Translations under genes and position numbers: made by a program
In this document: piece after piece, positions 5,691 to 48,092 of the stretch
Numbering within the stretch: position 1 is the stretch's first letter
Layout: each line of letters starts with the position of its first letter
NCBI GenBank assembly: GCA_951406725.2
Contig: OX597816.1
Coordinates: forward strand, 138,570,001 to 138,634,000
DNA from: Octopus vulgaris
Taxonomy: Eukaryota
Direction of reading: 5' to 3'
Length of the DNA stretch: 64,000 nt
The notes under the pieces: generated by a model
Databases searched by the model: none
What the model saw: only the letters and a program-made list of their open reading frames with translations
What the model was told of the DNA's origin: nothing

Positions 5691-5965
5691 GTGAAGGCGA
5701 GTGGCCAAGTGGTTAGGCTGTTGTACTCACGATCACTAGATCATGAGTTCGATTCCCTGATTGAGCGGCGCATTGTGCTTTTGTCCAAGACACTTCATTC
5801 CATGTTGCTCTAATCCCACCGCTTTCGATCAGAAGTGAAATTTGGCCTGATCGCTCTAGCCAGCAGGGTGGATTTATTTGAAAGTTAAAACAATGCAAAA
5901 CGCATTGTCACCAGCGATGTGTAACAACATCTGATAGCCTGGTCGGTCGCGTGGTCATGTGATAT
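5691..5965 (+). mobile_element. SINE family C (body 2, tail 3)
   Basis: Head GTGAAGGCGAGTGGCCAAGTGGTTAGG, tail CGCATTGTCACCAGCGATGTG..GATAGCCTGGTCGGTC. Confidence 0.8.
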
Positions 5966-13626: not shown

Positions 13627-15425
13627 TCATTTATTTGCCACTAAGGCCGACATATATGGGACAATACAGTAGACGGGGACAGTGGGGGGGATTACACAAA
13701 ACAAGTAAACAATTAGGAAAACAATAACAATAAACATTAAGCAAGAAAAATATAATAATGAGATTTCCCCAGTAGGGGGGATGGCCACCCAGGGTTGGCT
13801 CAGATACCCCACCAATCCTGAACCACCCGACGCTTCGAGAGTACTCGGGGAAGGTTCACCTCTCCTTCTCAAATTCACCATCCTACAGGCGCATTATTAG
13901 AATAGGTTCACTCACACGGACCATTTTCGCTACATTCACCCAACTTTCAGCAAATGTACGGAGGTGGGGGCATCACTTCTCTCTCCACCCTCATCTTCCT
14001 TTCCAAGTGAAATCTAAATAGTTGATGAGAGACTGGTCGAAGAGAAAAGTCTATTTTCAGTCTTTTCAACTTGGTCCACCATACAACCTCTTTCGTTACT
14101 GCTACCAGACAGAGGAAAATTGCCTGCTCTTCCTGGCCAAATTTTCAGTATGGAGTCGGCCAATAGCTGGATCTATCTACTCGCCACAATAATTGTTCGA
14201 CATAACTCCACAAGGACACTCGTCGAGTGCGTGCAGAACAGTTTCATTGCTCTGCACGCACCTCGAGCAGGTCCGTCTGACAGCACTTCCGTGCTTGTAG
14301 AGTTTATCTCAAACCGGCAGTGCCCCTCGGTATCATTGACAAGCAAGGGAAGTTATCTGGAAGTTATCCATCGTCCCAGGCTCGACAGTCCTCCGGAACA
14401 GACTACTCAGTTCAGCTTCGTCGACGCCCAGCACCTCTCCGAATGCGTCATCGCACTTTCCCACCACTAACCCTCTATAGAACTCAAGAGTGGATTTTCT
14501 ACCGACCGATTTTCCCGCCTGGTAGAAGGCAGTGAGTGCCTGGCAACATTCCACATGCCACTTACCCTGTCTCGGTCTCTTCTTGACCCAGGACTGCAAA
14601 TCATTTAAGGAGACGCGCAGGGAAAGGCCTGTTTGACAAACAGCGACCATACCTGTTCACCGTTTAGTCAGAATATCTGAAGATGCAGCAGCCTCAGCGC
14701 ATGTCTACTCATCATTAGCCACAGCATGTCCAGCCCTCCACGTAGAGAGTGTTGGCAGCAGATGGACTGCCTCACCAACGGAACCTGTTCCCTCCACAAG
14801 AATTTGAAGAGGAGGCGTTCCAACTTAGCGAGGCGTGAACGGAAGCAAGGCACGACAGTCAGCCGGTAGTAGATGACAGATTCGATGTACATATTCGTCA
14901 CCTCCACCCGACCTTTCAGGTGCTGAGCTGCAAGTCCACCAACTTTTCCAGATTAAGTTTTGCTCCTGTCAACTTTTCATATACCTCCAATGATGTGCCA
15001 ACCACCTCGATTTCTGAGGTGTTCGACACCATTACGGTGATGTCCACATAAGCCGACAAAGCCCTTCCGTGTCACAGTTCGAGCGGGATACCCTGCTGCA
15101 GCTCCAGCTTCCGCAATAAAAGCTCAAGAGTTAATACGTACAGAAGGGTGGAGAGAGGGTACCCTTGACAGACCGATTGGGAAATCTGAAACGATTCCGA
15201 GAGGTGGCGACTAACTTTGACACCGAGAAGATTCCACTGTGCAATACAGCGATCCAACCTCTGAAGACGGGGCCGAAACCAACTGCCTTGAGGACATTCC
15301 CCAGGTACCGATGGTCGACTTTATCGAATGCTTTCGATTGATATAAATTGATCAGGGCCCCATTCTGAACCAGGTTTACACCCTACCCTTTCTATGATAG
15401 ATCGCATAAGGTGGAGGTTGTCGTT
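13627..15425 (-). mobile_element. 5'-truncated, decayed L1/Tx1-like LINE (RT to 3' end)
   Basis: ALINLYQSKAFDKVDH, SVCQGYPLSTLLYVL, LFKFLW..GGL. Multiple frameshifts. 3' end GGCAAATAAATGAAATAATAAT. Confidence 0.85.
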
Positions 15426-16413: not shown

Positions 16414-16551
16414 AATTAAAATTGAAGCTGGGAGTTTGTCTCGCGACTTGAAATTCAAGCCACTGCGATCTTTTAACGAGGATCTTCGCCTGAAGATCGC
16501 AGTAGCCTGAAACTTGAGTCGCGAGCGGACCTATCAGCTTCAGTTTTAATT
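16414..16551. repeat. Imperfect palindrome with back-to-back hammerhead-like arms
   Basis: Left arm reverse complement AAGATCGCAGTGGCTTGAATTTCAAGTCGCGAG..CAGCTTCAATTTTAATT matches right arm AAGATCGCAGTAGCCTGAAACTTGAGTCGCGAG..CAGCTTCAGTTTTAATT. Confidence 0.85.
16486..16524 (+). ncRNA. Hammerhead motif with weak stem II
   Basis: TCGC-CTGAAGA-TCGCAGTAGCCT-GAAA-CTTGAG-TC-GCGA. Stem I TCGC/GCGA, canonical GUC cleavage triplet. Confidence 0.6.
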
Positions 16552-17082
16552 GTGGGTGTATGTGTATGCATATGGACCTGTGTGTACATAATCGCGCAAA
16601 TTATACCCACAGTTATAAGATATAAGAATCCTAATAAGTTTATTTTCAAAATGTCCTTGACCTGGGGTACAAAATTAGGCAAAAGTAAATAATGTGATAC
16701 GTCACAAAAGCAAACAATGAATTCTCAAATAACACCATTTTGTCTTTTCTCAATGCTAAAAAAATAATAATTTACAAAATAGCTGAATATAATCGTATAG
16801 TGTTTCATTTGAATACTTTATAGTTACCAACATCTAAGAGTAATATCTATGGAGCACTTAAAATGTTCTCGTATAAAACTATACAATCTATTTCGTTTTA
16901 TGTAGTGTTAACTAACGGATAGCTATGATGAAACAGCAAACACGGTGTAAACCTAGTATAGGTACAAGATCGATTTTCCGGAAATTTCGATTCTAACATA
17001 TTTCCAGCTTACTGATATTTCCGAACCAGTGATGGTCACCTTGGTCAATGCTCTTTAAATTAAACAAAGTTTAATTTTATTT

Positions 17083-17266
17083 CAGTAATTAAATGAAATA
17101 CAGGAACCTGCATTATTTATATTATTTACATTTTGGTGGATTTTGTAATCATCTTGTTTGTTGTTAACACAACGTTTCGGCTGATATACCCTCCAGCTTT
17201 CATCAGGTGTCTTGGGGAAATATCGAACCTGGGTTCTCATTACAAAGGTATTTTTCGATGTTGTTG

Positions 17267-17324
<58 letters not shown>

Positions 17325-17426
17325 TATTATTCAGGTCACTGCCTGGAATCGAACTCGGAATCTCGGGGTTAGTAGACCGCACTCTTAACCACTACGCCAT
17401 ATTTCCGTGAGCATATGGCGTAGTGG

Positions 17427-17494
<68 letters not shown>

Positions 17495-17673
17495 AAGAAG
17501 AAGAAGAAGAAGAAGAAGAAGAAGAAGAAGAAGAACAACAACAACAACAACAACAACAACATCGAAAAATACCTTAGGAATGAGAACCCAGGTTCGATAT
17601 TTCCCCAAGACACCCGAAGAAGGCTGGAAAGTATATCTAATATAAATGATTCCTCATCTCTTAAATAGAACTG
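17083..17673. mobile_element. Palindromic element: tRNA-like head + (AAT/AAC)n + body + hammerhead, in two divergent arms
   Basis: Central inverted repeat CCACTACGCCATAT (17389-17402) / ATATGGCGTAGTGG (17413-17426). Both arms share CATCGAAAAATACCTT..AATGAGAACCCAGGTTCGATATTTCCCCAAGACACC. The left arm has box A TGGCGTAGTGG and box B GAGTTCGATTCC. The right arm has deletions in the head and in the HHR. Confidence 0.8.
17166..17211 (-). ncRNA. Minimal type I hammerhead ribozyme motif
   Basis: Minus strand reads GACAC-CTGATGA-AAGCTG(GAGGGTATAT)CAGCC-GAAA-CG-TT-GTGTT. Stem I GACAC/GTGTT, palindromic AACGTT stem III. The stem II closing pair is mismatched in this copy. Confidence 0.75.
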
Positions 17674-17893
17674 TACCCGCATAATAATATTAATGATACC
17701 AATATTTATTTTCTATGCAAGGTGTTGTTATTCCAGCCTGGAAGCCGCGGGCATTGCTCTTCTTCTAACAAACTTGTGTAGATTAAAAGAATTTCCCAAC
17801 TATCAGTGTCCGGAAGGTCACTAAGAGATGGCTAAACATAAGTTTGGGGCCGAAATATATTACATGAGAATATTAGTTATTTATTTATGTGTA

Positions 17894-18230
17894 GTGAAAG
17901 TGCATGGCTCAGTGGTTAGAGCGTCAGGCTCACAATCATGAGGTAGTGAGTTCTATTCTCGAACCAAGTTGTGTAATTTGTTCTTGAGCAAGACACTTTA
18001 TTTCACGTTGCTCCAGTTAGCTTAACTGTACAAATGAGTTGCAACGTCACTGGTGCCAAGTTGTATCGGCGTTTGCCTTTCTCTTGGATAACATTGGTGG
18101 CGCGTGGAGAGGTGGCTGGTATGCATAGGCGACTACTGATATTCTATAAACAACTCTGACTGGAATTGTGCTTCCCAGGGTAACCATCTAGGAGCAATCC
18201 CATGGTCATTAATGGCCAAAGGGGTCTTTA
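17894..18230 (+). mobile_element. SINE family C-like (body 2, different tail)
   Basis: tRNA-like head plus TTCTTGAGCAAGACACTTTATTTCACGTTGCTCCAG. Another tail variant lies at ~54897-55147. Confidence 0.75.
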
Positions 18231-18776
18231 CTCTATTTATTTGTAAAGTGTTAACCAATTTCACTTAACACATTTTTTTCTATATTTTTATGTATTTTTA
18301 CGTAGTCTTCGTTTAGTAACTGAGGTCAATGAAATATTGAAAACGAACGTATAGAGCCAGATTACCCCCGTATGTTTATGTAATTCACAATAACACGCTG
18401 TCGCGTATTTTATAGCGCTAAATAAAGGTTACAAACATATATCATATATGAATGCCTTTAGTGTTTCGTTAACGTCAACAATCACAATTAAACAACGTGA
18501 TTAATGGGGAATGTAAAAATTTCCCTGAAGTACCTAAACGAACGAATGAATACTTCGAAATAGATAATTCATAAATCATATCCACCATATGCAATGTAAA
18601 ACACTGCATAATTGATTTTAAGACTAGTTATATTCGGAATGTAGAGAAGAAACGTAAAGAAACTGTCGTATTTTTAAACATTTCGTCTAAGTTGTTATAA
18701 CTTCTGTTGTTTATAGACGAAATAATATGTGTGCTGTCAGTAAAAGGAGAGAGGGACGGTAAAATATATCGTCAAA

Positions 18777-19407
<631 letters not shown>

Positions 19408-19412
19408 TATTA

Positions 19413-19470
<58 letters not shown>

Positions 19471-20207
19471 GCCGAGGTCAACTTTGCCTGTTACCCTTTT
19501 GGGGTCGATGAAATAAGTACCAGCTGAATAATCACGTAACACATTTCGGCCAAAAATTTCAGTCATTTTGCCTATATTGGAAAGGATTATTATTGTAAGG
19601 CAATGATCTTCCAGGATAGGTAGAGCTTCGAACAAAATTCTTTGCAATAATTTCTTACAATCATTTACGTTCTGTGTTCAAATTTCGCCGACGTCGACTT
19701 TGCTTTTCATCCTTTAGGGTTTTGATAAGCTAAATAAATACTGGTTGAGCACTAGAGCCGACTGACCCCGTCCCCTAACTTTGCTGGTCATGTTAGGGCC
19801 ACATTTTGAAACCGTTATTATTGGCGGTGAGGTCAAATTTACTTTGTATCCTTTCTGTGTAGATAACATAGAAATCAGTTGAGGAATGATGTCGATTAAT
19901 CGATTTCCCCCTCCCCTCAAAATTGCCGGCCCTCTGCCAAAACTAGAAAGAATTATAATTATTGTTGCTGTTACTGTTTTTGTAACTTCTAGGTTTCTAA
20001 TTATTACGGTTAATATTCGCTAAAACAAGATTGCTGATTACCAAAACAGGAATTTCAAAGAACGTTTTACATAATCAATAAAATAAAATGAAATAAAATA
20101 AGTCAATGACATTAGATGTTATGTGTTATCTAATCTAAAGTGCTTGGCTAGTCGTTTCAGTGGTTCATAAAATCCAGTCGTAATTCTTGTATTCCTCATT
20201 ATTGTTA

Positions 20208-38637: not shown

Positions 38638-39147
38638 TGTTCTCCTTCCAAATGATAAAGCAGTCATCTAGGTATCTTTTCCAATTTTCTCTTATGTAGA
38701 GGTAAAATCGGTAACCATATTTCTGAAGTGATACTTCATATAAGGTGAATTCAAAATAACCCATTATTAGGTCCGCAAGAACAGGGGCTGCTTTCGTTCC
38801 CATCGCAATTCCGCATTACTGACGATAGTATGTGTCATCAAATAGGAAATAATTGTTCTGAAGTATAAATTTTAAGGATTCAATAATAAAGATCTGGTAT
38901 ATGCGTTCCAGGAGTACTTCGGGGTACCTTTCCAACCAGAATTTAATTGCTTTTATTCCATAGTCATGTTGGTGTAAAGATTGATAACATCGAGGGTAAC
39001 CAATATTGCCGCTGCATTAATCGTTTTTGGTAGGTGTTCTAGCATGTCTAAATCATCCCTAATGAAGCTTTTGATGTATTTCAGCAAGGGTTTTAGTAGG
39101 ATGTCTAGAAAAATGCTTAGGCGGTGGGTTTCACAGGCTGGCCCAGC
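38638..39147 (-). mobile_element. Penelope-like element reverse transcriptase fragment (pseudogenised)
   Basis: Translation includes AGPACETHRLSIFLDILLKP..SFIRD..LVTLDVINLYTN, FILQNNYFLFDDTYYRQ*CGIAMGTKAAPVLADLIMG and WKRYLDDCFIIW, which are PLE-type RT motifs. Confidence 0.9.
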
Positions 39148-41574: not shown

Positions 41575-42265
41575 CCAATATTCTTGTACTAATATTCTTA
41601 TTAGTATCCAATATTGTGATGTAGATTCAAAATATTCTGTGTGCCGGTAGTTTGTGCTGTTCGTAAAGTCACAAGGACCTCAGACAGACAGTATTTACGC
41701 AGTATGCGTACTGTTGCATGTAAAGCCGATTTTTGCAACACACCAAGATTGTAGGGTATTTCTAAAGTGTCCAGATGTTTCTTCAGGCTGGGTGGTTTTG
41801 AACTCAATGACACGCTAACAACAGGATCAACCTTCATGTTTGACTCCCAACATGTTGACAATCTCAATTCTCAGGTTTCAATATTTGTTGACCTTTTCTC
41901 ATTCTGTCATGATAATATGTTGATCTGTAGGCACTGCCATGTCGATTAGTTGGCACTCTTGTTTTTCCCTCCTAAAGGTTACTATATCCGGCCTTCGGTG
42001 CTCTAACACCTTGTCTGTCTGGAAGTCAATGTTCCAGAAGATCTCTACCTTCCCTTTTTCGTTCATTACCTTTTTTGATGTATGTGGTACCAAGCACCCG
42101 TTATTCCGTAACCATACTTCCGGTATAGTAGCCAGTGAAGGTTTTGGACTACTTTGTCGTGTCAACGCGTGTATTCTTTCTGCGCAACACATTCACAAGC
42201 ACTAAGAATGTGAATCATATACTCGGCCCTCTTCGCACACATTCTGCAGATGTTCGTTGCACTTG
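41575..42265 (-). mobile_element. Decayed R4/Dong-like non-LTR fragment
   Basis: CRMCAKRAEYMIHILSAC (CCHC knuckle), IFWNIDFQTDKVLEHRRPDIV..QLIDMAVP, LQKSALHATVRILR. The 3' end abuts (TAA)n. Confidence 0.85.
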
Positions 42266-47650: not shown

Positions 47651-47781
47651 TAGATAGATAGATATATATATAGATATATATATATATAAAATATTATTAG
47701 AGACAAAACCACTATTTTGCAAAACAAACAAGGAAAGACTTAATCAATACATAAAATTTTAATAAATAGTCAAAAAAACCG

Positions 47782-47824
47782 CCACTACAATTGTTTCTTG
47801 TCTTGATCGACAATCTTCAGGTGG
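47782..47824 (-). ncRNA. Minimal type I hammerhead ribozyme motif (mirror copy)
   Basis: Exact reverse complement of 47874-47916, in the left arm of the palindrome. Confidence 0.85.
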
Positions 47825-47873
47825 ACTTCAGTAAGTCAGTTTCAAATTAATTTGAAACTGACTTATTGGAAGT

Positions 47874-47916
47874 CCACCTGAAGATTGTCGATCAAGACAA
47901 GAAACAATTGTAGTGG
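47874..47916 (+). ncRNA. Minimal type I hammerhead ribozyme motif (Penelope-like element type)
   Basis: CCAC-CTGAAGA-TTGTC(GATCAA)GACAA-GAAA-CAATTG-TA-GTGG. Stem I CCAC/GTGG, intact CUGANGA and GAAA cores, 5-bp stem II, palindromic stem III (ACAATTGT). Predicted cleavage after 47912. Confidence 0.85.
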
Positions 47917-48092
47917 CGGTTTTTTTGACTATTTATTAAAATTTTATGTATTGATTAAGTCTTTCCTTGTTTGTTTTGCAAAATAGTGGTTTTGTCTCTA
48001 ATAATATTTTATAATATTTTACTATAAAATTGGATTTAATCCTAAATCTGATTTTTTTCCCTGTAAATTTGGATTTATTCCCTAATATTTAT

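Follow-up and report, generated by a model that had tools for sequence, protein, structure and literature searches.

The locus examined here spans positions 17083 to 17673 of the window (the whole 64-kb stretch of octopus DNA that was analysed) and holds a decayed pair of short units placed back to back, each running outward from a tRNA-like head through a microsatellite and a short body to a hammerhead ribozyme or what is left of it. The features, with the evidence or state of each in brackets, are as follows.

17083..17673, both strands: whole element, a back-to-back pair of units, decayed
17389..17426, no strand assigned: central hairpin, the starts of two heads, each with box A, abutting at their 5' ends with a 2-nt spacer (17407-17408) between them
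17330..17406, minus strand: left-arm tRNA-like head (tRNA position +1 = 17406)
17399-17389, minus strand: left-arm box A (pattern scan)
17354-17346, minus strand: left-arm box B (pattern scan)
17260..17331, minus strand: left-arm internal microsatellite, (AAT)n(AAC)n (sequence and family loose ends)
17212..17262, minus strand: left-arm body, about 50 nt (high family depth)
17166..17211, minus strand: type I minimal hammerhead (descriptor, family depth, traits of the minimal hammerheads of Penelope-like elements, PLEs)
17083..17165, minus strand: tail 3' of the ribozyme (family-homologous to at least about 17112, diverged in the window copy)
17409..17426, plus strand: right-arm remnant head, +1 through box A (about 18 nt left, the rest of the head absent)
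17427..17561, plus strand: right-arm microsatellite, (AAT)13(AAG)23(AAC)9 (repeat scan)
17558..17637, plus strand: right-arm body and 5' half of the ribozyme (73/80 identical to the left arm)
17638..17673, plus strand: possible right-arm tail remnant (homology not significant)

The two arms diverge, as the preliminary description had proposed, from a 14-bp inverted repeat containing box A (17389-17402 / 17413-17426). Repeat and spacer fold as a single hairpin (z -6.5), and a fold as good was found in 0 of 200 shuffles. According to tRNA numbering, position +1 lies 7 nt upstream of the initial T of box A; counted back in this way, both heads begin at +1 and lie 2 nt apart, and the central hairpin is thus the result of two heads meeting at +1 across 2 nt. 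The left-arm head carries boxes A and B at normal spacing, and box A+B pairs occurred three times in the window versus 0.03 times per simulated window (200 simulations); the remaining two pairs are other heads. Its cloverleaf is degenerate; ARAGORN detected neither motif at standard settings, and a distorted tRNA alone at the 70% threshold. As to identity with a named tRNA, blastn against phages gave three partial tRNA hits and nothing more, and the head seems to resemble an animal tRNA-Arg. Three other tRNA-like SINE heads, all unlike the left-arm head, are present at 5702 (plus strand), 17905 (plus strand) and 35325 (minus strand), the one at 17905 opening a repeat about 230 nt to the right of the element.

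The order given earlier for the left arm, i.e., a head with box B, (AAT)n(AAC)n, a body and a hammerhead at 17166-17211, was recovered with a body of about 50 nt. A second box-B-like motif lies within this body at 17229-17220 (minus strand), and it holds a rare allele common to both arms. With a length of about 320 nt (< 1 kb), an interspersed distribution and no coding capacity, the unit agrees with the size definition of SINEs in the available part of PMC3531059. The sense strand contains a frame of 25 codons at most, and an ATG in the ribozyme core opens such a frame (17203-17126, minus strand). The coding frame of the anole PLE likewise starts at the ribozyme, and the octopus frame may by analogy be left over from the start of a PLE frame. 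No reading frame for reverse transcriptase (RT) plus GIY-YIG was found in the element by six-frame translations and searches with two frames; translations spanning head and body returned no further copy when used as queries, and no further copy of the element is present within the 64-kb window. The window is AT-rich (36% G+C) with abundant microsatellites.

The hammerhead has a stem I of five pairs (17211-17207 with 17170-17166), a core at 17206-17200 and one extra base (17199) ahead of stem II, while stem III is replaced by a 4-nt palindrome (17175-17172) that forms no closed stem; cleavage is predicted between 17171 and 17170. A descriptor for minimal hammerheads, composed after the motif had been seen and permitting the first pair of stem II to be broken, matched three times in the window and never in 300 dinucleotide shuffles. 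Rfam gave no match at gathering score over the whole window, and seven weak matches, none of them a hammerhead, over 17000-18300. Previous work listed as traits of PLE minimal hammerheads an extra base between positions 9 and 10.1, a G10.1-C11.1 pair, a short stem I and a palindromic 15.2-16.2 (PMC4209133, in the part available). All four are present here, the G10.1-C11.1 pair in the family majority and not in the window copy. Position 17198 (G10.1) is A in the window copy and G in 93-99.5% of family depth in all four runs mapped, so the left ribozyme of this copy is, by its sequence, probably impaired. At the level of the family, the hammerhead core is kept in the majority and G10.1 is present. 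Stem II has five pairs in the family majority, compared with the 7-8 reported for schistosome PLE motifs (PMC4209133, in part). The same available text states that PLE minimal hammerheads are thought to be active as dimers and are weak in vitro; a cofold of two copies pairing through the palindrome gave -26.0 versus -9.0 kcal/mol for the monomer, a value that includes other intermolecular helices too.

The right arm was described earlier as the same unit with deletions, which was borne out for the body and the 5' half of the ribozyme (73/80) and not confirmed for the sequence past 17637, where 394 of 2000 shuffles scored as well. Its microsatellite is longer than that of the left arm, and its ribozyme core is broken, with U4 changed and the 3' half missing. 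The outer ends at 17083 and 17673 were not confirmed, and the search for a target-site duplication gave nothing but AT-rich 5-7-mers. On the left, the flank at 17004-17107 matches a repeat of lower copy number, with a summed depth in X1 as high as about 100 times unique flank; this blurs the end of the element. The symmetry is best at the centre and undetectable at the outer ends. This is the reverse of what terminal inverted repeats would leave, and together with the Pol III boxes and ribozyme, which point to an RNA intermediate, it makes a fold-back or MITE-like DNA transposon, in whose long inverted arms the motifs would have arisen by chance, very improbable; such an origin would account for the palindromic layout overall, and other palindromes do occur nearby (16414-16551, a MITE-like inverted repeat with 59-nt arms that are 78% complementary).

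The two arms share an allele at 17222 that makes up less than 1% of family depth, but minority variants at 17202 and 17190 occur in the right arm alone. The arms may derive from two templates, with exchange between them afterwards, or from one, with changes acquired later; the data fit both. At this one locus, the inverted copy is joined at the 5' end with tails outward, which bears out the inverted dimer of the preliminary description as a head-to-head pair of the kind described for PLE insertions.

The element belongs to an abundant family. Part of 16990-17760 is contained in 20 of the 24 runs listed, and the 14 runs with a share above 0.2 bear three organism labels; six small-share metatranscriptome rows were left out of the evidence. 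Contigs of four runs were mapped to 16900-17268, a range that excludes the microsatellite, head and right arm, and 18,395, 7,695, 968 and 1,371 contigs matched. The summed depth over the ribozyme was 0.8-1.2e5 times unique flank in X1 and 1.4-2.2e5 times in X4, although summed depth is not copy number and overlapping contigs inflate it. A cautious reading is a family of tens of thousands of copies, which agrees with one locus in 64 kb. The 100 or more copies asked of a SINE are thus reached by body, ribozyme and tail, the parts that the mapping covered, as distinct from the head. The non-autonomous retroelement first proposed is supported in so far as the family is non-coding, high-copy and retroelement-like.

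Among the listed variants (40 rows, with four further rows that could include core positions), variation within the ribozyme core is confined to CpG sites (8-19%) and to position 7, where a transversion makes up 5-17%. Position 7 is the single free position of the hammerhead core. This sequence pattern suggests constraint in the source elements, though a conserved core would also be expected without selection if the family is young. CpG decay is strong in the family at 17173/4, 17178/9 and 17224/5 (4-23% of depth), which suggests that these repeats are or formerly were methylated.

Whether head and body form one element elsewhere in the genome bears on the next explanation. Loose ends at the 5' edge of the body (behind 17262) consist of trinucleotide repeat in all four runs (89, 53, 28 and 9 contigs), and the junction between body and microsatellite is at a fixed position in each. 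One X12 loose-end row (6 contigs) passes through the repeat into nine letters that match 17336-17344 in full, which is the 3' end of the head. This row has a median length of 16 letters, and its far end rests on few contigs. The other four of the five rows listed at the junction stop within the repeat, with 575 loose ends besides. This row is the sole sequence evidence for linkage of head and body outside the locus, and it is weak.

Head and ribozyme unit may accordingly have been separate, a tRNA SINE with an (AAT)n tail having received a fragment of a PLE terminal repeat targeted to (AAT)n. The anole PLE cuts at ATT (PMC11167929) and some PLE clades favour microsatellites (10.1101/2021.04.23.441226), according to the available parts of both sources, and the family mapping covers the body side alone. 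Against this, the same junction is present in both arms and fixed in position in all four runs, the microsatellite is confined to the 5' side of the body and absent beyond the tails, head sequence is reached in one loose-end row, and the locus would need two targeted insertions. We therefore regard two separate elements as rather unlikely for the present family, though the same route may have been the origin of its founder element.

In the preliminary description, the copied transcript was further proposed to owe its end to ribozyme cleavage, and the family data speak against this. The bin 17160-17172, which lies almost entirely 3' of the cut, is as deeply covered as the ribozyme itself. In all four runs, the loose ends at 17142 and 17149 carry a shared tail that resembles 17112-17148 and reaches at least 45-59 nt past the cut (window tail and family tail were compared by eye). 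Family copies extend past the cut, hence the copied RNA was uncleaved, and a cleaved 5' product could not have been the template of these copies. The absence of a run of four T between head and ribozyme, which had been part of the same argument, is real and even more extensive, as no such run occurs from 17406 down to 16879; it is weak evidence on its own, since 31% of 230-nt stretches in the window likewise lack one. The first four-T stop is at 16878, so that Pol III would read through ribozyme and tail.

An explanation in which cleavage nevertheless sets the RNA end, and cleaved or circularised RNA is the template (including a variant after SM-alpha or the retrozymes), would make use of the missing four-T stop ahead of the ribozyme. 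It also has precedents: SM-alpha ribozymes are described as freeing units from multimers, and retrozymes as using cleaved, circular RNA (PMC7229834; 10.64898/2026.07.22.740005, both in the parts available). It is quite improbable here, because the copies cross the cut at undiminished depth, and at this locus the heads are not preceded by the tail sequence that a circular or multimer template would leave there. Direct tandems are also absent from the locus; the pair is inverted and so differs from the tandem order of retrozymes. In the anole system, moreover, dead ribozymes leave PLE insertion in vitro intact, and read ends are absent at the cut (PMC11167929, in part).

Octopods do have a PLE with RT and GIY-YIG domains. 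A broken PLE-type RT fragment lies at about 38640-39110 (minus strand) and runs into unrelated sequence past about 38640. In a comparison that gave four hits among nine candidates, its part at 38639-38812 (minus strand) shared 88% identity with a protein of Octopus sinensis and 57% with one of Argonauta, which makes the host an octopod; the fragment is identified through its homologues, as Pfam and PDB gave no RT match for the fragment itself. One of the hits (83% identical) contains an RT followed by GIY-YIG, both with scores just below the Pfam cut-offs, and a cysteine cluster between them; this is the layout of an endonuclease-bearing PLE, probably a Neptune-like one. No terminal repeat adjoins the fragment in the window. 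The Penelope link suggested at the outset is supported by the PLE-type hammerhead, the octopod PLE with RT and GIY-YIG and the RT fragment in the window.

A second, near-perfect palindrome was detected at 47685-48013 (centre 47848/47849), in which 140 nt of arm are 100% complementary. It contains diverging minimal hammerheads at 47820-47786 (minus strand) and 47878-47912 (plus strand), with about 101 nt from cut to arm end and no tRNA head, and has no significant likeness to the body of the element (750 of 1000 shuffles were as good). It probably represents a young inverted insertion, of PLE type, by a different family. Since this unrelated palindrome shares the geometry, tail-out pairs seem to go with PLE-type insertion in this genome as such and need not be peculiar to the tRNA-headed family.

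The same observation weighs on the view that the element is a LINE-mobilised tRNA SINE with a captured PLE fragment, the ribozyme being a passenger and the inverted pair a local accident. SINEs and LINEs dominate octopus repeats (PMC13282606, PMC8967140, in the parts available), the ribozymes of the window copy are damaged, and the core of a young homogeneous family would look conserved anyway. Yet position 7 is the sole non-CpG core site that varies among the listed variants, and the tail-out palindrome is repeated by a second ribozyme family in the window. A LINE-type 3' end was not found at the locus either: there is no poly(A) and no simple-repeat end, the microsatellite being internal, and no clear target duplication, although old copies can lose both simple-repeat tail and target duplication. 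Mobilisation by a LINE is decidedly unlikely on this evidence. Frames at 19042-19677 (minus strand), 41899-42192 (minus strand) and 14018-14952 adjoin trinucleotide repeats and look like fragments of LINE proteins; Pfam gave nothing clear for the two of the three that were searched.

We favour, with a probability of roughly 0.6, a Pol III-transcribed, SINE-like, non-autonomous element of octopods (tRNA head, (AAT)n, body, hammerhead, tail) that is mobilised by a PLE and is represented here by a decayed head-to-head pair. We infer that Pol III would initiate at the head and, meeting no four-T stop, read on through ribozyme and tail; that a PLE protein with RT and GIY-YIG may recognise the ribozyme-tail region like its own terminal repeat and nick AT-rich DNA; and that reverse transcription would begin past the ribozyme, on RNA that had not been cleaved. 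If both strands were primed, or if the finished cDNA folded back on itself, the product could be a pair of units linked 5' end to 5' end, with the tails facing out. Source elements may keep the ribozyme fold as a handle for the protein, or because it acts as a slow switch, dependent on dimerisation or on the protein, by which template is destroyed; it would not generate the copied end.

Several of these steps have counterparts in the anole PLE, the only PLE tested in vitro, in which uncleaved RNA is the template according to the available part of PMC11167929. In the same source, the protein nicks and extends both strands at ATT, reverse transcription starts 111-118 nt into the frame with the ribozyme cut at 26 (i.e., 85-92 nt past the cut), ribozyme cleavage requires the protein, and insertion is normal with dead ribozymes. 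Inverted 5'-end copies are described as a standard PLE product (10.1101/2021.04.23.441226, in part), and in Schistosoma mansoni paired minimal hammerheads were reported on opposite strands 100-700 bp apart (PMC4209133, in part). A bolder version of the favoured reading is possible but doubtful: a true class of Pol III SINEs partnered with PLEs, present in octopods in tens of thousands of copies, with the bidirectional palindrome as its usual form, from which divergent RNAs would carry hammerheads active only as dimers, so that pairing would limit intact template.

Among known systems, the schistosome SM-alpha and Sj-alpha elements, which combine a tRNA-related Pol III promoter with a type I hammerhead (PMC6765202, PMC2770079, PMC8293314, in the parts available), resemble the octopus element in this order (judged here by sequence), in being non-coding and in reaching tens of thousands of copies. 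SM-alpha is often arranged in direct tandems, and its active ribozyme is said in these sources to free units from multimers, whereas the octopus pair is inverted, has the PLE minimal ribozyme and an internal microsatellite, and keeps the tail past the cut; judged by its sequence, its unit does not appear to be freed by cleavage. The architecture had at first not been recognised as a described family, which overstated its novelty, since a tRNA head with a hammerhead is known from SM-alpha/Sj-alpha; a tRNA-headed PLE-ribozyme element in octopods was not found in the literature searched, outside which most subscription papers fall.

PLE terminal repeats share with the octopus element the ribozyme type, the tail kept 3' of the cut and the inverted, 5'-joined copies (PMC4209133; PMC11167929; 10.1101/2021.04.23.441226, all in part), while the octopus element lacks a coding frame and has a tRNA head in place of the PLE 5' part. 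Non-LTR retrozymes, described as direct tandem repeats with circular RNA and proposed to be non-autonomous PLE derivatives, are similar in being non-coding, in their type I hammerhead and in the proposed dependence on PLEs; the available portions of these reports mention no tRNA head, Pol III promoter or cephalopod, and the octopus element is not tandem (PMC7229834; 10.64898/2026.07.22.740005). In its mode of action the element seems nearest, by analogy, to a PLE terminal repeat that has borrowed a promoter.

Octopus SINEs themselves offer a further comparison. The families OK, OR1 and OR2 are said to have been described by Ohshima and Okada in 1994, and OR1 and OR2 reportedly derive from tRNA-Arg. 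By description, they are alike in being tRNA-derived, from octopus and of high copy number. OR2 is listed as a CORE SINE (PMC4758252, in part), and the 50-nt body of the present element leaves scant room for its CORE domain. The family may nonetheless be catalogued as OK, OR1 or OR2, its ribozyme having been overlooked.

SINEs are generally taken to borrow the enzymes of LINEs, and a high-copy tRNA SINE driven by a PLE would, if true, add a partner class. Some octopus repeats filed as SINE or unknown would then be PLE-dependent, and the body, ribozyme and tail (about 180 nt) would provide a short natural cis-element in many thousands of copies. This would serve two questions of PLE mobility, namely the role of the hammerhead if cleavage is dispensable for insertion, and the origin of head-to-head insertions. 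The surprise is limited, since the components have already been published, as has the notion that PLEs have non-autonomous derivatives.

Searches were extended to other sequence collections. Two pattern scans of metagenome contigs (the first with a pattern that carried the rare allele of the locus) gave 0 and 0 matches, two of genome contigs 0 and 2, four of viral contigs 0, 10, 0 and 0, and blastn against plasmids none. The two genome-contig matches were bacterial and contained no tRNA, and the one examined was unlike the head outside the seed; in the ten viral matches, the likeness ended at the seed. A 2026 study of O. vulgaris repeats reported 190 Penelope-like families and many unclassified SINEs, with ribozymes unmentioned in the available portions of its text and supplement (PMC13282606). 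The family is likely present in some repeat library under a name.
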